Shown: positions 6,640 to 23,336, counted from the stretch's first letter. The stretch is DNA of 41,445 nt from Bdellovibrionales bacterium (GCA_043764415.1 JAYUKO010000231.1:1-41445); one strand, 5' to 3'. Numbers and translations are program-made. Notes: generated by a model from the letters alone, not told the origin.

Positions 6640-7080
6640 ATGATTCAAAATTTATGCTTGTTTATTTTAGTAGCGCTATCCTCTGCATGCGCCTCTGTGC
6701 CCATGATGGATTTAGGTGCCGATCAAGAGGCCAAACAATTTAATACCCCAGCAGGAAGAAGCCGTATTTATATCTTTCGCAACGAAAGCTTTGGCGGAGC
6801 TATCAAAGTGGCTATGTCCGTTGACGGGAAAAGTATTGGCCAGACAGCACCGCATACGTACTTTGTCTTGGATGTGAAGCCAGGCAAACATGAAATCGCC
6901 TGTTTAGCGGAGTCTAATTCTGACCTTACGGTGACGACTCAGAGAGGGAAATCAAGCTATGTTTGGCAAGAAATGAAAATGGGTCTTATACAAGCCAGCC
7001 GTAAACTTTCCGAAGTTACACAGGAAGAGGGCCAAAAAGCAGTAGCGTCTTGCAAGCGAGCGCAGGTGAAAAATTTTTAA
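6640..7080 (+). CDS. DUF2846-like lipoprotein
   Basis: LSSAC lipobox; AKQF..SRIYIFRNESFGGAIK..DGK..GQTAPHTYF..PGKHEI; AAAGG RBS. Confidence 0.8.
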   Translation: MIQNLCLFILVALSSACASVPMMDLGADQEAKQFNTPAGRSRIYIFRNESFGGAIKVAMSVDGKSIGQTAPHTYFVLDVKPGKHEIACLAESNSDLTVTTQRGKSSYVWQEMKMGLIQASRKLSEVTQEEGQKAVASCKRAQVKNF

Positions 7081-7125
7081 AGAAGCTTAAATAATAAAGC
7101 ATTTTTTTATGCAATAGGTCCCAAA
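7078..7125 (-). repeat. Solo degenerate arm of the TTTGGGA palindromic element
   Basis: Minus strand directly after the cfa TAA reads tttgggacctattgcataaaaaaatgctttattatttaagcttcttt, alignable with the arm tttgggattcattgcataaaaataatttcccatttttttaaagggcttcttt of the 12.8-kb element. Confidence 0.65.
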
Positions 7126-12691: not shown

Positions 12692-12799
12692 CTCAACCTC
12701 TCAAAAAACTTTAAAAGCGTTATAACACAACCTACAGTGAGAGAATTCCAAAGGCGTCGCGCTATGTAATTTTTATCGAATCGTTACTTTGAGACACAC

Positions 12800-12967
12800 T
12801 TTTGGGATTCATTGCATAAAAATAATTTCCCATTTTTTTAAAGGGTTCTTTTTAAGACCTCTCGCAAACAGGATGTTTCGTCCTGCGAGCGAGTCCAGGA
12901 TGGACGCGTCTTAAAAAGAAGCCCTTTAAAAAAATGGGAAATTATTTTTATGCAATGAATCCCAAAA
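12800..12967. repeat. Long palindromic element, copy 1 (59/60-nt arms around a 49-nt core)
   Basis: Arms 12800-12858 and 12908-12967 are exact reverse complements except one extra G at 12921; core is 12859-12907. Confidence 0.95.
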
Positions 12968-12975
12968 CGCCGAAT

Positions 12976-14892
12976 CTACTCGAGGTAGACTTTGAGTTTC
13001 TTGTCGTCCGTCCAAATTTCGCCAACAGCGGGAGCTGTTTTAACAACGCGGCCTTTGCGACCCACAAGGTTTAAATCGACTTTTTCTTTTTGCACATAGC
13101 GAAGCACATCGCGGAGAGCCCAGCCCTTCATGTCAGGCACAAAAGCCTCACCCTCCGTGCCAAGGAGAACCTCGTGAATTTCGGTGCGCGGCTTAATTAA
13201 ATCCTCTTCGGAAATTTGCACGGGTGCCAGTCCACGCTTATTGATCGCGTAGTGCGCGATTTTCGCAAAAATAGGAGCTGCCGTTTCTGACCCGTAATAC
13301 CCATTGTTGCGAGGATTATCCACCACCACATAGATTAAAAACTCAGGATCGTTTGCTGGCAAAAAACCAATGAAGCTCGAAATATATTGCCCTTTTAAAT
13401 ACCCACGACCGTGGGGATCCACTTTTTGCGCCGTGCCGGTTTTTCCCGCCACAGGAAATCCTCGCACGCGCGCTGCCTTTCCCGTGGCTGTTTCGGCCGT
13501 GGCTGCCACCAGCATCATTTTGATTCTCTCGGCTTCCTTATCCGAGAGCACCCGGCCCATGTTGCGCTCTTGCGCTGTTTTAGCGTCGAGAATTTCTTTT
13601 TGCGATTTCACAAGAATGGGTCGTTGCAGGACACCTTTGTTGGCAATGGCGGCGTAGGCGTTGGCCATTTGCAGAGCCGTCACCGCGATGCCGTGGCCAA
13701 AAGAAATATTGGCTTTGTGGTGATCGCGCCATGGAGGCGTTAAAAAGATTCCTTTGGATTCTCCCAGAATATCGATTCCCGTTTTTTCGCCAAAGCCAAA
13801 CTTTTTATATTCTTCGTAAATCTGCTTATCCTTCATCTTAAGGGAGATTTTAGAAACCCCCACGTTGGACGAATTGGCTAGGACTTCGGTGGTGGAAAGT
13901 TTTTCGTAGGTGTGATGAGCATCGGATTCGCGAATCACTCGTTTGTCGATTTCGATTTGGCCAGTTGAGGTATCGATCACTGAGTTGCCTTGAATGATTC
14001 CATTTTTAAGAGCAGCCGCTAAGAACATGGTCTTCATGGTGCTGCCGGGCTCGTAGATATCGGTGGTGATGCGATTGCGGCGAGATTCCTTACTTGCGCC
14101 ACCGGCATTGTTGATATCAAAGTCGGGAAGCGATGCCATGGTGAGGATCTCGCCAGTTTTAGGACTCATCACAATAGCCCACGCCGCCTCGGCGTTGTGG
14201 TGCACCAATGCTTTTTTAAGTTCCTGCTCGGTGAAGTACTGAAGGTCTGCATCGATGGTGAGGTACACGTCCTCGCCGTCGCGGTTTTGCATAAACAGCC
14301 AACCGTCCTCCACCAAAAATCGCCCGCGGGCATCTTTCGGAAGATTCATGACTTTATCCTCAGCACTCAGGCGAGCATCGTAGCGAGCCTCGATGCCCTC
14401 AAGCCCATGACCATCGGCACCTACAAAACCAATGGTGTGGGCCATTAAATTTTTATTGGGATACACCCGTTTGAATTCGTCTTTAAAACCCAAACCCTTT
14501 TCGTTGAGCGCCAGGATTTTCTTTTTGCTGTTTTCGTCGAGCAAGCGCTGAATCCAAACAAAGCGCGAATTCTTTTTAGTCAATTTTTTGTAAATAGTTT
14601 TTTGCGACAGTGGCAAAATCTGTGACATTTTTTTTGCCAACCGGCGCGGCGTTTTGATTAACAGTGGATCGGCAAAAAGCGAAAAGGCAGGTACTGAGAT
14701 CGCGAGCTCCTGGCCATTGCGATCAAAAATATCTCCGCGCTTGGAATAGAGCTTCACAATCCGTTGATACTGCTTTTGGCTTGCGAGATCTAAATTGTGA
14801 CTGGGATAAAGTTGAATTTGTAATCCGCGGAAAACCAGGAGTGACCAGATCGCAAAAAACCAAATGAGCAGTATGGATAGACGATGCTTCAT
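12976..14892 (-). CDS. ftsI: Penicillin-binding protein 3 (FtsI) with C-terminal PASTA domain
   Basis: RGDIFDRNG, RVYP, GLEGIE, EPGSTMK (SxxK), SSN and KTGTAQ; downstream of rsmH-ftsL. Confidence 0.95.
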   Translation of the reverse strand: MKHRLSILLIWFFAIWSLLVFRGLQIQLYPSHNLDLASQKQYQRIVKLYSKRGDIFDRNGQELAISVPAFSLFADPLLIKTPRRLAKKMSQILPLSQKTIYKKLTKKNSRFVWIQRLLDENSKKKILALNEKGLGFKDEFKRVYPNKNLMAHTIGFVGADGHGLEGIEARYDARLSAEDKVMNLPKDARGRFLVEDGWLFMQNRDGEDVYLTIDADLQYFTEQELKKALVHHNAEAAWAIVMSPKTGEILTMASLPDFDINNAGGASKESRRNRITTDIYEPGSTMKTMFLAAALKNGIIQGNSVIDTSTGQIEIDKRVIRESDAHHTYEKLSTTEVLANSSNVGVSKISLKMKDKQIYEEYKKFGFGEKTGIDILGESKGIFLTPPWRDHHKANISFGHGIAVTALQMANAYAAIANKGVLQRPILVKSQKEILDAKTAQERNMGRVLSDKEAERIKMMLVAATAETATGKAARVRGFPVAGKTGTAQKVDPHGRGYLKGQYISSFIGFLPANDPEFLIYVVVDNPRNNGYYGSETAAPIFAKIAHYAINKRGLAPVQISEEDLIKPRTEIHEVLLGTEGEAFVPDMKGWALRDVLRYVQKEKVDLNLVGRKGRVVKTAPAVGEIWTDDKKLKVYLE

Positions 14893-14899
14893 AGTTTAC

Positions 14900-15196
14900 T
14901 TACTTTACAGCGACGGTGCCTTGCCCAGCCACACGAATCACTTGTCCTTGTTTTGCGTTTTGAAATGTCAGTTGAGTGGTCGCGATTTTGCGCACACGCT
15001 CGGGGCTTGTCATGCGTGCCAGGCTCACCATGCTCAATTGTTGTCTTTGAGTGGCGCGTTTTTCTTTTTCGGCAAGCTCTAACAAAGCGTAGCCCATTCG
15101 ACGGTTTTCCATTTTTACATAAACAATGGCGAATAAAGATAACAGCAAAATAAATACGCTAAAGAATGGCTTTATATTTTCATTCAAATTTTTCAT
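14900..15196 (-). CDS. ftsL: Cell division protein FtsL-like
   Basis: One TM helix plus coiled coil ending SPERVRKIA; lies between rsmH and ftsI; GGAGG RBS before ATG 15196. Confidence 0.8.
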   Translation of the reverse strand: MKNLNENIKPFFSVFILLLSLFAIVYVKMENRRMGYALLELAEKEKRATQRQQLSMVSLARMTSPERVRKIATTQLTFQNAKQGQVIRVAGQGTVAVK

Positions 15197-16076
15197 CCGG
15201 CCTCCGCAAAAATCCACGTAGCTTCGCACTTCGCGATCGAGGATTCAGTTTTTGCTCCTCGTCGTTTGCCACAATGACCTTCTTATTAATACGATACCCG
15301 AATTCTTCGTGATCCTTAAAGATATTTTTAGCAATCCGATCCTCTAAAGAGTGAAACGTCATCACAACCAGCACTCCACCCGGGACTAAAGACCTGATCA
15401 TGCGCGGCAGACTGTCTTGCACACTCTCCAACTCCTGATTCACTCGCAAGCGAAGGCCCAAAAAATACTGCGTCGCTGGATGCTTGCCTTTTTTTTGCCA
15501 GCCGTCAATTCGCTCGATCAACCCTGCGAGCTGATGGGTTGTGGTAAACGGCTTGGTTTGTCGATCGAACAGAATGGCGCGAATCACGCGGTAGGGGCTG
15601 CGAACTTCGCCGTAATTTTTAAAAATATCAATCAAGTCTTCTTCATCCCATTCATTGATCATTGTGGCTGCCGAGATTTTTTGATTTTGATTCATCCGCA
15701 TATCCAATGGGCCGTTGTGGTAAAAACTAAATCCCCGCTCGGGATTATCCAGCTGGGGCGAGCTCACTCCTAAATCCAATAAAATAAGATCAAACGAGTC
15801 GCCATTTTGCTCGGTAAATTTTGCAAATGTTCCGTGGAACATGGTGAGGCGCCCGGGAAACTGCGGTTCGATCACTTTTTCACCGTGTTCGATGGCGGTT
15901 AAATCCTGATCCACGCCCACAACATGAAGAGTGGTATATCGCTGCATCAAAGCCGCCGAATGCCCACCGCGACCGAAGGTTCCATCCAGCAATTTGCGAG
16001 GCTCTGAAGGACCCGCATTGAAGAGTTCGATGATTTCATTGAGCATGACCGGGACATGATGATTGGATTCTGACAT
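15180..16076 (-). CDS. rsmH: 16S rRNA m4C1402 methyltransferase RsmH (MraW)
   Basis: HVPVML, DGTFGRGGHS, DLGVSSPQLD..RGFSF, PLDMRM, FHSLEDR and NPRSRSAKLR. Confidence 0.97.
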   Translation of the reverse strand: MSESNHHVPVMLNEIIELFNAGPSEPRKLLDGTFGRGGHSAALMQRYTTLHVVGVDQDLTAIEHGEKVIEPQFPGRLTMFHGTFAKFTEQNGDSFDLILLDLGVSSPQLDNPERGFSFYHNGPLDMRMNQNQKISAATMINEWDEEDLIDIFKNYGEVRSPYRVIRAILFDRQTKPFTTTHQLAGLIERIDGWQKKGKHPATQYFLGLRLRVNQELESVQDSLPRMIRSLVPGGVLVVMTFHSLEDRIAKNIFKDHEEFGYRINKKVIVANDEEQKLNPRSRSAKLRGFLRRPDEKFE

Positions 16077-16191
16077 TCGGTGATTTTACGCTCGCTGCGG
16101 GACGAAGTCAGTTAGACCATAGGCGAGGAGCGTCAACTCTCTTTAGCTCATCACAAAACACTATGTTAGTCTGTTTTGAGAAGGATTTTTC

Positions 16192-17136
16192 ATGATAAAG
16201 TGTCCAAAATGCGACTTCGAACAGCCCGAGGATATTTATTGCGCCCAATGCGGCGTCAATATGAAAAACTTTGTTCCTCCGCCAAAATCCATCCTTGCTT
16301 TGTTGCTCTCCAATCAAAACCCCATTTTGGGAATTTTGTTTGTGGGCATTATTATTTTTGTCTTGTACGACTACGCCCTTTCTAAAAAACCAAGAACCAA
16401 CACCGTGGCCGCCATCACAAAACAAACCAGCGAGCAGATGGATGTGCAAGACTCCCAAACGCCGTCTTCTTACAAGCCAGCGATTGAAACACAGCAGGCT
16501 CAGCTCGCCGAAGCCCCCAAAATTGAAAAAGTGGCCCAGGAAGCTCCTCGTCCCGCGCGCGTTGCTAACGACTTACCGGTTCCCGGGGCCGCGGTAGCAA
16601 AGTCCTCCTTACAAATTTCTTTTTATCAAATTTCCCGAGCCTTGTTGGGCGAAATTCAGCGCGAAACCAACGCCAGCCCCTTTAACGGCGATGGTTTTGG
16701 CGGCATCATTGCAAAAAAGCGTCTTGCGGTTTTGCGCAGAAGTCCCGAGCTCAAATCTATTTCCACAAATCGCTATAAACTTGATGGTCATCCCATCAGC
16801 ATTTTTAAAGGGCAAAAAAGTGGCGAGGCTGCAAAAAGCATCGGGCTCTATTTTCAGGTAAATCCCCTCAAGAATGATGCTACGTCCACCCAAATCGAAG
16901 TTAAAAGTTGGGGAAGCCTAAAACTTCAGGAGAACGACGAAAATCTCTTCACCAGCGAAATGACGCTCAACTCTCAATCGGTGGCCATGATCGCAGGCTT
17001 TCTTCCCAAGGATAAAGTCTTTGGGGATGAGGAAAAATCCATTTTCGAAACCGATCGTGCCCTCAAAATCTATAATTCTGAGGGCTTTTGGGACGGTGAC
17101 ATTGATTTGATCATGTTTGTTGAACTTCCCGATTGA
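16192..17136 (+). CDS. Hypothetical membrane protein with N-terminal zinc ribbon
   Basis: CPKC..CAQC, one TM helix, low-complexity linker and a globular C-terminal domain. Confidence 0.75.
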   Translation: MIKCPKCDFEQPEDIYCAQCGVNMKNFVPPPKSILALLLSNQNPILGILFVGIIIFVLYDYALSKKPRTNTVAAITKQTSEQMDVQDSQTPSSYKPAIETQQAQLAEAPKIEKVAQEAPRPARVANDLPVPGAAVAKSSLQISFYQISRALLGEIQRETNASPFNGDGFGGIIAKKRLAVLRRSPELKSISTNRYKLDGHPISIFKGQKSGEAAKSIGLYFQVNPLKNDATSTQIEVKSWGSLKLQENDENLFTSEMTLNSQSVAMIAGFLPKDKVFGDEEKSIFETDRALKIYNSEGFWDGDIDLIMFVELPD

Positions 17137-17154
17137 GCACGCTATAAAACCCAA

Positions 17155-17946
17155 ATGGGGTACAAGTCTTACGAGATTGAACATCGATATCCAGCCAATG
17201 TGCACATTTTGCATCATCCAACGATGAACTCTTTGCTCACCAAGCTTTGCGCCCCCGAAACACTACAACCCGAATTCAATCGCTTAGTGGCGACCATTTA
17301 CAGCACATTGTTTATCGAGGCGATCAACAACGAATGGCCAAAAATCACTGTAAAAAAATCGACGCGCATGACGGCGTCCCATCCTGAATGTTTATATACC
17401 GGTGAAATTCTCGATGATAAACAAAAGGCTGTGATTGTGGATATCGCCCGCGCTGGCATGTTGCCTAGCCAAGTGGGTTTTGATCTTTTGTGCCACACGG
17501 TGAACCCGCATTTGGTGCGACAGGATCACATCTTTGCTTCTCGCATCGTCAACGCGCAAAATACCGTCACAGGAACCGACCTTGCAGGTTCAAAAATTGG
17601 CGGCGACGTTACAAACTCCATCGTCATTTTGCCAGATCCCATGGGCGCCACCGGTCAGTCGTTATCGACCGTTTTGGATTTTTATAAAAAAAATATAAAA
17701 GGTCCTGCGAAAAAGTGGATTGCAGTGCATCTGATCGTAACGCCAGAATACATTCGGCAAATCACCCAGGCTCATCCCGACGTGATTATTTACACCGCCC
17801 GCGTAGACCGTGGACTTTCCAGCGAATCGGTTTTAAAAACTATTCCGGGTGAGCGCTGGGCCGATGAACGCGGCCTCAACGACCAACAATATATTGTCCC
17901 CGGCGCTGGTGGCGTCGGCGAATTGATTAGCAACTCATTTGTGTAA
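17155..17946 (+). CDS. upp: Uracil phosphoribosyltransferase
   Basis: IARAG, PDPMGATGQS PRPP-binding loop and LNDQQYIVPGAGGVGE. Confidence 0.9.
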   Translation: MGYKSYEIEHRYPANVHILHHPTMNSLLTKLCAPETLQPEFNRLVATIYSTLFIEAINNEWPKITVKKSTRMTASHPECLYTGEILDDKQKAVIVDIARAGMLPSQVGFDLLCHTVNPHLVRQDHIFASRIVNAQNTVTGTDLAGSKIGGDVTNSIVILPDPMGATGQSLSTVLDFYKKNIKGPAKKWIAVHLIVTPEYIRQITQAHPDVIIYTARVDRGLSSESVLKTIPGERWADERGLNDQQYIVPGAGGVGELISNSFV

Positions 17947-17961
17947 TAAACAGGGGGAACC

Positions 17962-18492
17962 ATGGTGCCATTAAAACTTTCAAAACTGATTGATGAAAAA
18001 ACGCTGCAAGAACGCGTAAAGCAATTGGGAGCGCAGATCACTAAAGATTTTAAAGGCGAAGATGTGGTGGCCATTTGCATCTTAAAAGGCTCCTACATGT
18101 TTTACTCTGATCTCATTCGCGAAATCGACGCCAATGTCATCTGTGAATTTTTTGGTGTTTCCAGCTACCACGGCGACACGCAATCGTCGGGCGAGGTAAA
18201 GGTAACTTTGGATCTCACCAATCCCCTCGAAGGAAAAAATGTTCTGTTGGTCGAAGACATCGTAGACTCTGGGCTCACCATGACTTACCTCAAGACTTGT
18301 TTGCAAGCGCGCCAGCCAAAAAGCCTCAAAACAGTTTCACTACTTGTTAAACCCGACGCCATGAAAGCCGATGTGCAGTTGGATTATTTTGGCTTCGAAA
18401 TCAAAAACGAATTTGTGGTGGGTTACGGCCTTGATTATCAAGAGCTCTATCGCAATCTTCCCTACATCGCTAAAGCAGATAATTTGAATTAG
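17962..18492 (+). CDS. hpt: Hypoxanthine phosphoribosyltransferase
   Basis: ILKGS, VSSY, VLLVEDIVDSGLT, FVVGYGLDY and RNLPYI. Confidence 0.97.
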   Translation: MVPLKLSKLIDEKTLQERVKQLGAQITKDFKGEDVVAICILKGSYMFYSDLIREIDANVICEFFGVSSYHGDTQSSGEVKVTLDLTNPLEGKNVLLVEDIVDSGLTMTYLKTCLQARQPKSLKTVSLLVKPDAMKADVQLDYFGFEIKNEFVVGYGLDYQELYRNLPYIAKADNLN

Positions 18493-18507
18493 CTCGGAGG
18501 AGTCCGA

Positions 18508-19005
18508 ATGAGAATTTTTTTAGCTATTTCATTTTGTTTATTTACATCATGCTCTCGGTTTAGTAAAGAGCCCGTGGCGCCGTCGGTGCAGGTGGCGACT
18601 CCAGCGGAAAAAACAAACGACACTGAAAATGTTTGCATGAATGCATTTCAGAAAACAATTTATGAACTCGACACCAATGGAAATTTTCAGTCACTCTACG
18701 ACTTTTACAAAAACCATAGCAACTGCATGGACGGCGCTTACTCTCAGGGGATTGAGGGAGCCATCAGCTTAAGTTTGGACGTTTTCTGGAAGAATCTTCC
18801 TGATCTTGCAAAATTATTTGATGCTGATAAAGAGTTTAAAAATTTCTTTTTTAAAAGTATGGGCTGTTATGTTTCGGCCACCGAGAAACAGCTAGCCAAT
18901 GTTGTGGTTAAAGCACAAGGCGAATGTCCCGCCGCTCTGAAAAATCTCTGTGTAGAGCTAAAATCAAAAGCCGAAAAAGAAATTTCTTACGCGAAGTCGC
19001 AATAG
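18508..19005 (+). CDS. Cys-rich helical hypothetical lipoprotein
   Basis: LFTSC lipobox, GGAGG RBS and several further Cys residues. Confidence 0.7.
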   Translation: MRIFLAISFCLFTSCSRFSKEPVAPSVQVATPAEKTNDTENVCMNAFQKTIYELDTNGNFQSLYDFYKNHSNCMDGAYSQGIEGAISLSLDVFWKNLPDLAKLFDADKEFKNFFFKSMGCYVSATEKQLANVVVKAQGECPAALKNLCVELKSKAEKEISYAKSQ

Positions 19006-19042
19006 ATTGCGACGCTGTGCCGCCGGTAAAGGTACTTGGTAC

Positions 19043-20401
19043 CTAAAAGCTGCCGTGGCGGAGGATGTTGTCGAAGACGTCTCGCACTTGGCTGTCGTAC
19101 TTGGTGGGGCCGTTGTACATGAATACGAAGGCTTTTTGCTCACCGTTTTTTTGGTAGTAACCCGCGAGTCCAATAATACCGTCCAAGTAGCCCGTTTTTG
19201 CACGCACCTCTGTGGCTTTGTCTTTCAGGCGTTTTTTAAGTGTTCCATCCACTCCAGCGATGGGCAATGAAACCATAAACTCCGGAAAAATGGCATGCTT
19301 CGAGCGAAGATCCACGAGCAGCTGTCCTAAATCCTGGGCGCGAAATTTATTGTCGTGGGAAAACCCCGATGGATTTTCGAAAACGAAGTTTTTTTGTTTC
19401 CAACCGTTATCGAGCAACCATTGCTGTATTCGTTCCACACCTTTTTTAAGAGTTGCGGGTTTTTGCGATGAGAGGGCCTTTGTCAGCATCTCGGCCACGT
19501 AGTTGTTTGAAAACTTCGCCATGTCGGTGACGATGTCGCGCAAGGGTTTGCTCTTAAAAGTCACTAACAGTTGGGCCGATGGCGACGGTGCCTTTTTTTC
19601 GACAGTACCGCTGTACTCAATACCCTGTTGATTTAAAAATGTCTTAAAGTTTTCGCCCGCCCAAAAATCAGGATGGCTGATACTTTTGTAAATCGCCTGT
19701 TCCACAGATCCCAGGGCGATGGTTCCACTCACGATGACTTCGTCGTGTTGCTTTTTCGAACGGCGCTCTACCCGCAAGTCGGTTTTCGCACCGGTTTTCA
19801 CTTGATTTTTTAATTCGATGTAATCGTTTTGTGGATCTGCAAAAACAGAGGCAGCTTCGCCTTTTTTACCCGGTCGAACAAAAATGTTTACCGAATTCCA
19901 GTTAAACGACATGGCCGCCACTGGTGCATCATACGCTCGATCAACTCGCACACTTTGGCGAGAGTCCGAGAAATACTCTTCGTCAAATAGGGAGCTATCC
20001 ACATACAACTGCCCTTTAAGGGACTTTATACCGGAGCGCTTGAGCTCGTTGACAATGGCCCAGTAGTTTTCCGAAACCAGTGAAGGGTCGCCGCCCCCCT
20101 GAAGATAAAGGTCGCCCTTAAATTCAGGACCCGTTATTGGCTCTGACGACCACACACGAGTTTCGAAATAGTGACCCAAACCAAGTACGCCTAACACGGC
20201 TGCCGCCGTTGGAATTTTGCTGAGAGATGCCGGGGTCATAAGCACGTCGGCGTTGTGGGTCCACGTGGTTTTTTCGCCCTCCATCCAAATGCCAAAGTGC
20301 TTCGTCGGAATTTGACTTCGTCGCAAAATTCCATCAATCGGTTCGGCTAAGGCATTCCAATGAACAACCAATGCGAGAAGAAATATCGTGTATTTTCCCA
20401 T
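19043..20401 (-). CDS. dacB: D-Ala-D-Ala carboxypeptidase/endopeptidase PBP4 (peptidase S13)
   Basis: PASLSK (SxxK), GGGDPSL, FSNNYVAE (SxN) and AKTGYL; signal peptide. Confidence 0.94.
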   Translation of the reverse strand: MGKYTIFLLALVVHWNALAEPIDGILRRSQIPTKHFGIWMEGEKTTWTHNADVLMTPASLSKIPTAAAVLGVLGLGHYFETRVWSSEPITGPEFKGDLYLQGGGDPSLVSENYWAIVNELKRSGIKSLKGQLYVDSSLFDEEYFSDSRQSVRVDRAYDAPVAAMSFNWNSVNIFVRPGKKGEAASVFADPQNDYIELKNQVKTGAKTDLRVERRSKKQHDEVIVSGTIALGSVEQAIYKSISHPDFWAGENFKTFLNQQGIEYSGTVEKKAPSPSAQLLVTFKSKPLRDIVTDMAKFSNNYVAEMLTKALSSQKPATLKKGVERIQQWLLDNGWKQKNFVFENPSGFSHDNKFRAQDLGQLLVDLRSKHAIFPEFMVSLPIAGVDGTLKKRLKDKATEVRAKTGYLDGIIGLAGYYQKNGEQKAFVFMYNGPTKYDSQVRDVFDNILRHGSF

Positions 20402-20461
20402 GCAAATAATTATGCCCGATCCCCTCTTGGCATTACAACAATTATTAGCTAAGCTTTTGAA

Positions 20462-22030
20462 GTGATACTTTCTGGACGTCGGCTGCTTCGCATTTTAACT
20501 CTTTGTTTGATTGTCATTCCACTGACAATCTTAATGGCAATTCTCCTCACAAGTTGCAAAAAGCGTTCGCAAACGCCACCAGACACAGTTGTTATTGGCA
20601 TCCCCGCCGCACCACCGACTTTGGATCCTCGCCTCGCGCGCGACTCCATCGGCAGCAACGTGCGCAGTCTGATCTTCACATCACTTGTGCGTGTGACTAC
20701 CGAAACACCTTCTTCTCCCATCACCATTCAGGGAGATCTTGCGGACTCCTGGACTTATAAAAATTTAGTTTATCATTTTAATTTAAGGCCTGGAGTTACT
20801 TTTTCAAACGGCGAGCCACTAACAGCTGAGGATATTGAATTTTCGTTCGCTGAGTTTCAAAAAGATTCCTGCATATTTTCGCCCGCCTTTAAAAAAATTA
20901 AAAAAGTGGTCGCGGTCTACGATGGAACAAACCACTTTGTCGACCTCACGGTAGATCGTTTTGAATCCACCTTCTATCTTGATCTGGCCATCGTACAAAT
21001 GCTCCCTAAAAAAATTGTACAAGCCCACGACAAGGACTTTTACGAGCACATTGTTGGCTCGGGCGCTTTTGAACTGCTAACGGCAAATGACAATGAGCTT
21101 GTCCTGAAGGCGCGAGCCAATCATTACCGCGCTCCTAAAATTTCTAAATTGCAACTCAAAGTGATTCGCGACGACAACACGCGCTTTCAAAAGCTCTACA
21201 AGGGCTCAGTGGACCTCGTGCAAACCGATATTCCACTCTCCAAGATGACGGTTTTTAAAAGCTCGCCTCGCTTTGACGTGTACGATATGGCGGGCGCCAA
21301 CGTAACTTACATGTTGTTGAATCTGCGGGATCCTTTACTGAAAAATAAAAGCGTCCGCGCTGCGATTAACTACGCTCTCGATCGAGCCGAAATTATTAAA
21401 TACAAACTCGAGGGTTACGCCACCCCAGCAAGCACCTTTGTGATTCCCAGTACACCTTACTACGATGCCTCCATTCAACTTCCTAGCACGAACGTTCAAA
21501 AGGGAATAGAGCTTTTAAAGAATTTGCCGAAACCATTGGAACTCGAACTTAAAACCTCCAATCAAAAAATGGCCATCGAAAACGGTCGTATTCTTGCTCA
21601 TCAAATCGAAAAACTTGGAATTTCGGTACGTATGAAAAGTTTTGAATGGGGAACTTACTACGAGGATGTTTCGAAGGGCAATTTTCAGCTCGCAACAATG
21701 CGCTTTGTGGGCATTTGGGATCCCGATCAGTATCGACTCGCGTTTCACTCTGAACAAGTTCCTCCAAAAGGCGCTAATCGCGCTTTTTATATTAATCCTC
21801 AGCTTGATAAGCTTTTAGAGCAGGGGCAGCAGCTCGAAAATCTCGATCAACGGATTCAGCTTTACAAGCAAATTCAAAAAATAGTGGTTGAAGACATGCC
21901 CGTGTTACCCCTTTGGTACGACCAGTATGTAGCGGTCGTGAATAAACGGATAAAAAACTTTGTGCCGTCACCGCTGGGTGGATTTCAGTTTATTTTCAAC
22001 ATTGAGAAGGAAACAGAAAAAAATGAATAG
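20462..22030 (+). CDS. ABC transporter substrate-binding lipoprotein, family 5 (peptide/nickel)
   Basis: LLTSC lipobox, TLDPR, LADSW..LRPGVTFSNGEPLTAEDI and VRAAINYALDR; exact start uncertain. Confidence 0.9.
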   Translation: MILSGRRLLRILTLCLIVIPLTILMAILLTSCKKRSQTPPDTVVIGIPAAPPTLDPRLARDSIGSNVRSLIFTSLVRVTTETPSSPITIQGDLADSWTYKNLVYHFNLRPGVTFSNGEPLTAEDIEFSFAEFQKDSCIFSPAFKKIKKVVAVYDGTNHFVDLTVDRFESTFYLDLAIVQMLPKKIVQAHDKDFYEHIVGSGAFELLTANDNELVLKARANHYRAPKISKLQLKVIRDDNTRFQKLYKGSVDLVQTDIPLSKMTVFKSSPRFDVYDMAGANVTYMLLNLRDPLLKNKSVRAAINYALDRAEIIKYKLEGYATPASTFVIPSTPYYDASIQLPSTNVQKGIELLKNLPKPLELELKTSNQKMAIENGRILAHQIEKLGISVRMKSFEWGTYYEDVSKGNFQLATMRFVGIWDPDQYRLAFHSEQVPPKGANRAFYINPQLDKLLEQGQQLENLDQRIQLYKQIQKIVVEDMPVLPLWYDQYVAVVNKRIKNFVPSPLGGFQFIFNIEKETEKNE

Positions 22031-22910
22031 ACCTCTCATCCTGTGCATCGACGACGACATCCATATTCTCGAAGCTTTGCAAAGAGATCTCCGACAGTCT
22101 TTTGATATCGCGCTAGCGACAAATTTTTCGGACGCGCAGAAAGCTTTTTCACAAAAAGTGTCCATCGTGATTTGCGACTACAATCTAAAAACTATCAACG
22201 GTTTAGAAATTTTAAATTGGGTCAAAGACAGCCACCCACAAACCCTGCGCGTTCTTTTGACTGGTGAAGTGGGTCTTTCGGACATTTCAAGCGCCATGGA
22301 ATCAAATCTCATTCATAAATTTATCTTAAAACCCTGGGAACCTGATTTACTGCGCCTGCACATGCGAGAGGCCGAGAGCACCCTGCGACTTTTAAACGAG
22401 CGCGATAAATTTAAGGAGCTGTCCATTACCGATCCGGTGACTGAACTGACAAATCATCGTTTTTTCCAAGAAAAATTACGCATCGAAATCCAAAAAGCCA
22501 AACAAACAAAAACCGCTGTTTCGCTGATTATGATCGATGTGGATCATTTTAAAATTCTCAACGATCAATTTGGTCACCCGCGCGGAGATCAGATCCTGTC
22601 CTTGCTTGCACAAAAGCTATCCAGCGAGATGAAGCCCCACTACTCTCTCTCCCGCTATGGCGGCGAAGAGTTTGCGGCGATCTTGCCTAAAACCCCATCT
22701 GATTTTGCCTTCGCGTTTGCCGAAACCCTGCGCGCCTCAGTCAGCCACATCCCCTCTCTGCAATTCCGACTCAGCATTAGCCTTGGTGTTGCCAGCTACC
22801 CCGAGCACGGACTCGATGCCGACGAAATCGTCGCGGTCGCAGACCAAGCACTTTACCTCGCTAAAAAACAAGGCCGCAATATGACCGTCATAGGCCAAGA
22901 CATCGCCTAA
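22023..22910 (+). CDS. REC-GGDEF response-regulator diguanylate cyclase
   Basis: IDDD, ICD phospho-Asp, LLTG and KPW receiver motifs; DVDHFK..ND.FGH..GD and RYGGEEF; overlaps the SBP stop by 8 nt. Confidence 0.93.
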   Translation: MNRPLILCIDDDIHILEALQRDLRQSFDIALATNFSDAQKAFSQKVSIVICDYNLKTINGLEILNWVKDSHPQTLRVLLTGEVGLSDISSAMESNLIHKFILKPWEPDLLRLHMREAESTLRLLNERDKFKELSITDPVTELTNHRFFQEKLRIEIQKAKQTKTAVSLIMIDVDHFKILNDQFGHPRGDQILSLLAQKLSSEMKPHYSLSRYGGEEFAAILPKTPSDFAFAFAETLRASVSHIPSLQFRLSISLGVASYPEHGLDADEIVAVADQALYLAKKQGRNMTVIGQDIA

Positions 22911-22930
22911 CTTTGGGATATTCCCTAACA

Positions 22931-23086
22931 CTTTCTTCTATTTTTTAGAATATTTGGAGATTCGAAACAGTCCTTTTTCAAACGCGTCCATCCTTGGACT
23001 CGCTCGCAGGACGAAACGTCGTGTTTGCGAGAGGTTTGAAAAAGGACTGTTTCGAATCTCCAAATATTCTAAAAAATAGAAGAAAG
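22931..23086. repeat. Long palindromic element, copy 2 (53-bp perfect arms around a 50-nt core)
   Basis: 22931-22983 is the exact reverse complement of 23034-23086; core 22984-23033 is the reverse complement of the copy-1 core with 2 substitutions and 1 indel; TTTGGGAT at 22912. Confidence 0.95.
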
Positions 23087-23336
23087 GTGAAAATGAATGC
23101 GCAAAGCTACCAACGTGGACGTTCATGGCCTTTTTTCGCTATTAAGAATAGGGTTGGACTAGACTCTGGAGAGCTAATTTCTGTTCACTTTTCATAAGTT
23201 TCTCTTTTAGGACCTTTGCGACCTGGATGGGTTAAAAATTGAGCAGAAATTAGCTCTGTAGAATTGGCCTAGAGTTCTGTCTAGTTAAGACCTTTTTGTG
23301 TTTTACGGTTTTTGCCGAATCTTTTATTCTAAGTGA

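Follow-up and report, generated by a model that had tools for sequence, protein, structure and literature searches.

The window analyzed here, a 41,445-nt contig (C231) of an uncultured Bdellovibrionales bacterium, carries two copies of a dispersed hairpin element in which a conserved core, referred to below as the apex, sits on a long and nearly perfect basal stem. Copy 1 lies between two minus-strand genes, a 291-amino acid (aa) open reading frame (ORF) that matches no Pfam family and a penicillin-binding-protein gene; copy 2 lies between two plus-strand genes, one for a response-regulator/GGDEF protein and one for signal peptidase II. A preliminary description, made from the sequence of the window, had reported both copies with cores identical at 47 of 50 positions, and the alignment comes close to that count: 94% identity over 50 aligned positions, with two mismatches and one gap. 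For a 36-nt piece of the core, the chance expectation in the window is 0.00 occurrences. The self-complementarity of the arms was also as described. Anchored pairing of the copy 1 arms gives 59 Watson-Crick pairs and one bulge (54 nt at 94% with an ungapped repeat finder), and the repeat finder returns the copy 2 arms as 53 nt that are 100% complementary. Next to the core, AAGAC/GTCTT of copy 1 is replaced by CAAAC/GTTTG in copy 2, the compensatory difference that had been pointed out. The single extra arm counted in the window proved to be a half copy on the minus strand, which the covariance model introduced below does not detect. Beside copy 2 stands a degraded copy that has lost hairpin 2 as well as its inner 3' arm; the two form a head-to-head (divergent) doublet. 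The degraded partner was assigned to a variant core, type B, by alignment with type B copies on contigs C291, C121 and C328.

Copies and remnants of the hairpin element in the window
Feature	Position	Strand	Remarks
Half copy	~7046..7123	-	REP-like end, one arm, worn core piece
Copy 1, 5' arm (basal stem)	12800..12858	+	Worn REP-like end TTTTGGGATTCATTGCATAA; conserved inner arm ending AAGAC
Copy 1, conserved apex	12859..12907	+	Three-way junction; hairpin 1 loop AGGAT, hairpin 2 loop AGGAT
Copy 1, 3' arm	12908..12967	+	Ends 8 nt short of the penicillin-binding-protein stop codon (gene 12976-14892, minus)
Copy 2, 3' arm (sense orientation)	22931..22983	-	Locus-specific sequence, no REP-like end
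Copy 2, conserved apex	22984..23033	- (sense)	Hairpin 1 loop ACGAC, hairpin 2 loop AAGGAT
Copy 2, 5' arm (sense orientation)	23034..23086	-	Partner of 22931-22983
Degraded partner of copy 2	23165..23262	+	28-nt arms, 86% complementary; inner arm, hairpin 1, type B junction

Both window copies belong to a genus-wide repeat family. For comparison we used the assembly that contains the window (G000; 2.79 Mb in 403 contigs, 81% complete) and five sister genomes (G001-G005), all from one uncultured Bdellovibrionales genus. BLAST with a 73-nt unit found the element in all six of these genomes and in none of 35 genomes of other genera. A lack of further copies had been named as one outcome that would undo the idea of a family; the core gave 16 matches at E <= 1e-4 in its own genome, several of them at contig ends, where the repeat had broken the assembly. 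A covariance model built from 57 copies (R1) matched 23 times in G000 and between 10 and 31 times in each sister (G001, 10; G002, 23; G003, 22; G004, 31; G005, 24), as expected from the large dispersed family that had been proposed. Outside the genus, R1 gave one to three weak matches in 8 of 20 genomes from the other genera of the family, and these are built alike, a long perfect stem leading to a three-way junction with CCA(N)GGATGG hairpins. An exact-pattern scan of public species genomes returned three Bdellovibrionales metagenome-assembled genome records only, and the core pattern had no match in viral contigs. Besides the core type of the window copies (type A), G000 contains variant cores, type B and type C, each with a different hairpin 1.

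The apex spans about 74-100 nt and consists of a 12-bp inner stem, a three-way junction and two small hairpins; a long stem lies beneath it in every copy. Its conservation was measured on an alignment of 57 cores (52 distinct rows) against a specified structure of 25 pairs. Paired cells made up 97.0%, compared with 91.7% in shuffles and 36-53% when the partners were slid, and 12 of the 25 pairs had changed on both sides, a value reached in none of 500 shuffles. Pairing of helix 4 (86.5%) was lower only through a one-column shift that MAFFT introduced in 14 rows. RNAalifold, run on 20 full elements, agreed with the same structure. Conserved unpaired letters are found in the junction and in the loops. 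The loop of hairpin 2, nearly always A(N)GGAY, contains GGA in 48 of the 52 distinct cores (exact AYGGAY in 16); the loop of hairpin 1 contains GGA in 31, reads mostly ACGAY in the other 21, and is never a clean AYGGAY. A ribozyme core, hammerhead or other, was considered and rejected, the junction letters being unfit by eye and no Rfam ribozyme family giving a match.

The two strands of the element are not equivalent. R1 scored copy 1 at 96.2 bits on the plus strand versus 25.1 on the minus strand, and copy 2 at 95.9 bits on the minus strand versus 23.1 on the plus strand. Wobbles in the stems are likewise uneven, with 24 G.U on the sense strand versus five A.C, which would be G.U on the other strand; the binomial p of 0.0005 is indicative only, since the copies are related by descent and not independent. 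The asymmetry is indicative of folding by one particular strand and does not separate RNA from single-stranded DNA (ssDNA). A metatranscriptome contig covers positions 12793-12929 at 90-95% identity; it derives from another copy or organism, is strandless and may be DNA, and was not counted.

Stems were examined in 72 distinct copies from G000 and from stretches of the five sisters, which remained of 104 nhmmer matches once partial matches and duplicates of overlapping loci had been removed. Under a strict stem rule, Watson-Crick pairs occupy 3012 of 3061 positions (~98%), the irregularities being the 24 G.U and five A.C already mentioned, 12 transversion mismatches and eight bulges. The 55 untruncated stems have a median length of 52 bp (range 24-78), and 20 of them are perfect. 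In an alignment of 20 REP-ended copies (see below), 34 of 70 predicted pairs stay paired through two-sided changes. Orthologous stems could be compared in six copy pairs that passed a two-flank orthology filter, with 31 indel or shifted-register positions set aside. Here 247 stem pairs were unchanged, 17 had changed on both sides with pairing kept, five had changed on one side, and uncompensated two-sided changes were absent. Transversion-type changes account for 11 of the 17 compensated ones. Independent mutation at ~7% divergence would be expected to produce about one coincident double change. The alternatives are extremely strong selection and copying of one arm by the other.

Arms derived from the neighboring gene were observed at two loci elsewhere in G000. 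At the first (type B core; contig C328 in G000, C31 in G004), the left arm has its start within the final codons (…IEKIEFI or V, stop) of a 166-aa GreA/GreB-family gene, and the right arm ends with an inverted copy of these codons and of the 3' flank, 34 nt long with one mismatch. The same site in G002 is free of the element and has one copy of the 34 nt, the gene end followed by the downstream flank, and no inverted copy; the coding end of the gene is conserved in G003 and G005 as well. At the second locus (contig C288; a core of the type found on contig C37, without REP-like ends), a 334-codon ORF contributes its last codons (KNF, stop) to the outer 13 nt, together with their inverted copy, and the empty site in G002 has the gene end only, again with no inverted copy. 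An inverted copy of pre-existing coding sequence cannot arrive within a mobile unit, and must therefore have been templated from the other side; this conclusion holds whether G002 is ancestral or the element was deleted there. The duplication at both sites is inverted, not direct, and comparisons at C360, C328 and C288 revealed no direct target-site duplication of the kind expected for a MITE (a miniature transposable element with terminal inverted repeats).

The preliminary description had suggested checking whether arms match genes, which at these two loci they do, and had proposed that one arm is templated from the other. The proposal thereby gains direct support at the two loci; for the window copies, for which no close enough empty site was found, templating would follow by analogy. 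Smaller overlaps between stem and gene end (3-11 nt) occur at C360, C180, C134, C378 and one G005 copy. Overlaps at C292 and C247 were discarded, as the ORFs that end inside the arms look spurious. Nor did we count a palindrome that extends at least 200 nt into both flanks of a copy (G002:C38:520-1200) and at first suggested a third, larger flank copy: a very large inverted duplication and the fold-back misassembly of a short contig are the two readings, and the 4.6-kb contig resembles the latter.

Part of the family is closed by a repeat that resembles repetitive extragenic palindromic (REP) sequences. A REP-like end with the 9-mer TTTGGGACT lies near the outer ends of both arms in 21 of 62 full copies and on one arm only in five; the other 36 have none. 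The 5' arm of copy 1 is alignable with 19 other REP-ended copies, and the arms of copy 2, on clustering, group solely with the G004 orthologue. The arms of the two window copies had been called largely unalignable with each other, which is true; the copy 1 arms do, however, align with about 20 other copies from three genomes. The element had also been described as the reverse of a MITE, variable at its ends and conserved inside. This is only partly so, since 21 of the 62 full copies have a conserved REP-like end on both arms, as in REPINs. Other hairpins, quite unlike the element in their interiors, share the full end (…GGTACGGACACACTTTTTGGGACT…).

A transposase gene is associated with the same end. 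On contig C155 of G000, the gene for a 197-aa Y1 protein lies between perfect 27-nt inverted repeats that are the REP-like end. The best NCBIfam match of the protein is 'REP-associated tyrosine transposase' (RAYT; 73.5 bits, under the cut-off of 80), and it matches Pfam Y1_Tnp with 40 bits, over the cut-off of 23. This is the linked HUH/Y1 (RAYT-type) transposase whose existence had been anticipated, flanked by the end repeat of about one copy in three. A 24-nt form of the end occurs 19 times in G000 and 30 times in G002 (23 apex copies each), both of which encode the C155 transposase at 88% identity or more. Genomes G004 and G001 have six ends each (31 and 10 apex copies), G003 and G005 have none (22 and 24 apex copies), and a C155 transposase at this identity is absent from all four; reversed-pattern controls gave 0 in every genome. 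Apex copy number is independent of the REP/RAYT pair, and the C155 transposase can therefore account for only part of the family. Mobilization in trans, as had been suggested, is consistent with the RAYT-flanking end shared by the REP-ended copies. RAYT-like paralogues gave 14 matches at E <= 1e-20 over the six genomes, several per genome, and no transposase gene was found to adjoin an apex.

Two further RAYT-like genes of G000 (C81:10036-10826 and C398:9169-9958; 213 and 225 aa) each have an inverted repeat of their own, and both repeats contain small GGTAC…GTACC palindromes; in G001, one small GGTAC…GTACC hairpin stands in for the left arm of an element. A second multi-copy family comprises short Y1_Tnp-like proteins of ~140-160 aa, in which an HFHF motif and KESVQKDHFHFCIKI are found. 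This family has at least five paralogues in G000 (C7, C327, C258, C39, C232) and many in the sisters, is distinct from the ~200-aa RAYT-like proteins, and was not found to have flanking inverted repeats.

Copies of the element occupy a restricted kind of site and turn over at it. A crude ORF rule called both neighbors for 27 copies, of which 10 have convergent neighbors, 17 co-directional ones and none divergent ones. Wherever two elements come within 500 nt of each other (11 pairs), they stand head-to-head; several of these pairs are orthologous, so that the independent loci number fewer than 11. Orthologous sites that are filled in one species and empty in another may reflect movement. The copy 2 locus is a short empty spacer in G003 and G005, a head-to-head doublet in G000, G004 and G001, and a truncated single copy in G002, and its right-hand partner differs in core type between G000 (type B, degraded) and G004 (intact type A). 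Between copy 2 and the degraded partner, the spacer includes a 34-codon ORF with a plausible ribosome-binding site (23094-23198, plus strand), which is probably due to chance, the G004 spacer showing no conservation by eye. The copy 1 locus has an orthologue in G004, one arm and 12 nt of core in G002, and other repeats in G001. The C360 locus is empty in G004, differs in G001 by its interior but not by its REP ends, and holds another palindrome in G002. A palindromic family with GGTGCCAGGT(C/T)CTGTTTGT fills, in G001 and G002, sites that hold the element elsewhere (the C360 and copy 1 loci).

Half copies recur among the sites of the family. At the half copy of the window, synteny with G004 ends at about position 7124, where G004 has a full copy, and then continues differently; at copy 1 (12692-12800) the left neighbor differs in G000, and synteny with G002 and G004 breaks at element copies. 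These junctions suggest that element repeats may mediate rearrangements. Metagenome DNA contigs placed on the window pile up on the core, and no excision joint was found among them. Most orthologues that appeared flipped turned out to be doublet partners or shared flank repeats, and for one pair, apparently flipped in G002 against G004, replacement is a possibility. A true inversion of the apex, with the arms unmoved, separates G000 from G004 at the C288 locus.

The core has a precedent: its architecture is that of TwoAYGGAY, the one near-match of note in Rfam and a family already reported as multi-copy and in divergent doublets. The TwoAYGGAY RNA motif is listed by Weinberg et al. 2010 (PMC2864571), whose entry does not name Bdellovibrionota. 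Catalogued from 2010 on, it has been assigned no function and no means of spreading. According to a 2026 preprint (bioRxiv 10.64898/2026.09.22.753630), it is multi-copy in Pseudomonas, where 68.4% of doublets are divergent at a median distance of 249 bp; it adjoins REP arrays, has an elongated basal stem in Bacillota, and is called mobile-element-like, with no mechanism given. The main text of that preprint contains no occurrence of 'Bdellovibrio', 'RAYT' or 'REPIN', and its figures S17-S29 may show long-stem variants. A 2015 paper proposed the motif to be a CsrA binder, its outer stem not being well conserved (PMC4333381). Like TwoAYGGAY, the element described here has two adjacent hairpins on a common, long and poorly conserved basal stem, and GGA loops (the model apex CCaUGGAuGG is the commonest hairpin-2 apex in our set); it is multi-copy within a genome, forms head-to-head doublets a few hundred bp apart (all 11 close pairs) and is associated with REP sequences, and in the Rfam alignment each of its hairpins falls on its counterpart, first on first and second on second. 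Unlike TwoAYGGAY, its hairpin 1 has an inner stem with a 6-nt internal loop and a terminal loop AGGAY or ACGAY, its host belongs to Bdellovibrionota, its ends can be tied to a specific RAYT gene, and its arms to copied flanks. In a sample of 151 genomes of the phylum, TwoAYGGAY exceeded its cut-off in one genome and gave near-matches in two more, and all three are long perfect stems with GGA hairpins.

The stem and its ends resemble other systems. In REPINs the spacer varies, the hairpin being preserved through compensatory changes (Bertels and Rainey 2011, PMC3116915). As in REPIN-RAYT systems, we find, in part of the family, an inverted pair of REP ends forming a hairpin, a spacer that varies and remains paired, a cognate Y1 gene with the same REPs, extragenic sites and singlet remnants. 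The differences are that the apex and not the ends is most conserved, that 36 of the 62 full copies have no shared end, that the stems are much longer (up to 78 bp), that arms can hold the ends of neighboring genes, and that several RAYT-like paralogues are present per genome. Quasipalindrome correction and the extension of inverted repeats by intramolecular template switching have reportedly been described by Ripley and by Lovett and co-workers. This process would be expected to yield just what we observe, through copying of mutations from arm to arm, compensation of transversions as readily as transitions, and extension into the flank. To our knowledge, template switching has been described at reporter sites and not as a maintenance mechanism of a natural repeat family.

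The GGA loops invite a comparison with targets of CsrA, a protein that recognizes GGA-containing hairpin loops; the CsrA of B. bacteriovorus was active in a reporter assay, and the same source states that little is known of CsrA regulation in Bdellovibrionota (PMC13443453). The portions of the literature available to us contain no description of a CsrA-titrating RNA in Bdellovibrionota. A csrA gene was found in four of our six genomes. Like sponge RNAs of the CsrB/RsmZ type, the element has GGA in short hairpin loops and two sites per unit; unlike them, it consists of dispersed units of one or two sites and not of one many-site RNA, it has no promoter or terminator, and its hairpin 1 often lacks GGA.

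The explanation we favor, with moderate confidence in it as a whole, places the element among the structured repeats of the TwoAYGGAY class, as a variant specific to this lineage. Selection acting on one strand, both on its fold and on its unpaired letters, would keep the apex, which stands on a stem that is REP-ended, flank-copied or both. The apex would be read as single-stranded nucleic acid, either RNA or the ssDNA of transposition or replication, by a dimeric protein. Our leading guess for this partner is a GGA-binding protein such as CsrA. The basal stem would have no sequence of its own and would draw on two sources, REP-like ends and copied flanks. Those copies that are REP-ended, about a third including copy 1, would be REPIN-like and movable in trans. 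The stem would grow outward when the flank of one side is copied, inverted, onto the other side, possibly through fold-back or an intramolecular template switch as the hairpin is replicated. By such copying, any mutation of one arm would be followed by its match in the other, and this could produce ~98% pairing in arms that differ between loci; the arms of copy 2 may have this origin. The parts are of kinds already known: an apex like TwoAYGGAY, ends like those of REPINs, and the maintenance of a palindrome through copying. What appears to be new is the Bdellovibrionota lineage, the tie between the apex and a RAYT-flanking repeat, and stems that contain inverted ends of neighboring genes.

A number of observations weigh against this explanation. 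Copy 1 scored 32.4 bits against TwoAYGGAY (RF01731), below the gathering cut-off of 43; it is the best real copy, no match in G000 exceeded the cut-off, and the Rfam scan of the window at gathering thresholds gave 0 matches. Much of this score comes from the stem, and when the stem is trimmed the match is gone, for which reason we have not filed the element as a member of RF01731. A long hairpin on contig C37 with an unrelated core reached 40.2 and 35.3 bits on its two strands, which we regard as a stem artefact; Rfam matches at loose thresholds were mostly plant and animal microRNA precursors, on both strands and to the long stem alone, and were rejected as artefacts too. None of the 52 distinct cores has AYGGAY in both terminal loops. 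The csrA gene was not found in G000, which is 81% complete, or in G003, which is 99% complete and has 22 R1 matches. The apex has no preferred direction, being co-directional with both neighbors in eight cases and antisense to both in nine, and both window copies are antisense to their neighbors. A search with consensus hexamers, allowing up to three mismatches, found a sigma-70-like promoter on neither side of any of 51 copies. G003 and G005 have 22 and 24 apex matches without the 24-nt REP end. Flank-derived arms were seen at two loci only, both with cores other than type A, the type of the window copies. The element-free sites in G002 could be secondary deletions, which would leave the origin of the inverted copy unaffected. 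Finally, all genomes compared are metagenome assemblies, in which palindromes are error-prone.

We consider it unlikely that the element is purely selfish, that is, a REPIN or MITE whose hairpin is recognized as folded ssDNA by a RAYT/IS200-like Y1 transposase and has no RNA role, the two apex hairpins being binding sites of a transposase dimer. The identity of the REP-like ends with the flanks of the transposase gene and the several RAYT-like paralogues per genome argue for such an element, but apex copy number does not depend on the matched REP/RAYT pair and no apex has a transposase gene next to it. Sites only between or after genes (0 of 27 copies between divergent genes), frequent half copies, turnover at the same site, and the lack both of a promoter and of a preferred direction relative to neighboring genes would all be expected of it, and the strand bias of the wobbles would also fit a strand-specific ssDNA intermediate. 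It leaves unexplained the 36 of 62 full copies without a recognizable common end, and an apex conserved at ~80% throughout the genus, in contrast to the decay of orthologous REP ends and arms.

A regulatory RNA whose stem is kept by ordinary selection for double-stranded RNA pairing, with stepwise compensation and no templated copying of arms, appears improbable. The strong covariation in apex and arms and the excess of G.U on the sense strand (24 versus 5) are what such an RNA would show, and yet 11 of the 17 matched double changes are transversion-type and thus had no wobble intermediate, and double changes outnumber single ones by 17 to 5 at only ~7% divergence. Pairing at ~98% Watson-Crick is far stricter than an RNA stem needs, and the outer arms that are inverted gene ends at two loci are beyond what point substitutions can create. 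The RNA-library contig over 12793-12929 would favor such an RNA but, strandless as it is, may be DNA carry-over, and no promoter was found. Equally hard to sustain is a REP-like 3'-end element (a stabilizer of mRNA 3' ends, an RNase III site or a termination aid) with the stem as its working part and the apex incidental: all 27 neighbor-called copies do lie downstream of at least one gene and several stems reach the last 3-20 nt of the neighboring gene, but the apex is the best-conserved part, with covariation and conserved unpaired letters, no T run follows the stem in either direction by eye, and sister genomes have the same sites without the element.

A bolder proposal, which we put forward tentatively as a possibility, is that the hairpins are self-extending, a seeded copy lengthening its stem by copying the flank, the last codons of a gene included, in inverted form onto the far side, and continually repairing the stem in the same way; template switching would here serve a whole natural repeat family. 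Self-extension, if true, would explain the poorly conserved outer stem of TwoAYGGAY-class elements, and would place an antisense copy of a gene's 3' end beside that gene as a by-product. The end of an mRNA, stop codon included, could then enter a long duplex topped by a protein-binding apex, with locus-specific regulation as a consequence. The genus offers handles on these points in its RAYT-matched ends, its filled, empty, half-deleted and replaced sites, and the two loci with a copied gene end; through them, the origin of long, copy-specific, near-perfect stems and the action of the apex as RNA or ssDNA become testable.

Other repeats in these genomes share features with the element. Long perfect hairpins with GC-rich, structured interiors occur in G000 at C37:17997-18230, C288:6690-6892, C294:8387-8565, C378:916-1044 and C90:13019-13133; those on C37, C294 and C90 have REP-like ends and those on C288 and C378 do not, and the C37/C288 interior recurs in G003 and G004. 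A GC-rich module of ~50 nt (…CGCTCGTTCACGAGCAGAGCTCGCTCCGTGCCCACAC…) abuts the REP end on the left of the C132, C227 and C292 copies and of copies in G002 and G004, which suggests a mosaic (BIME-like) arrangement of repeat modules.

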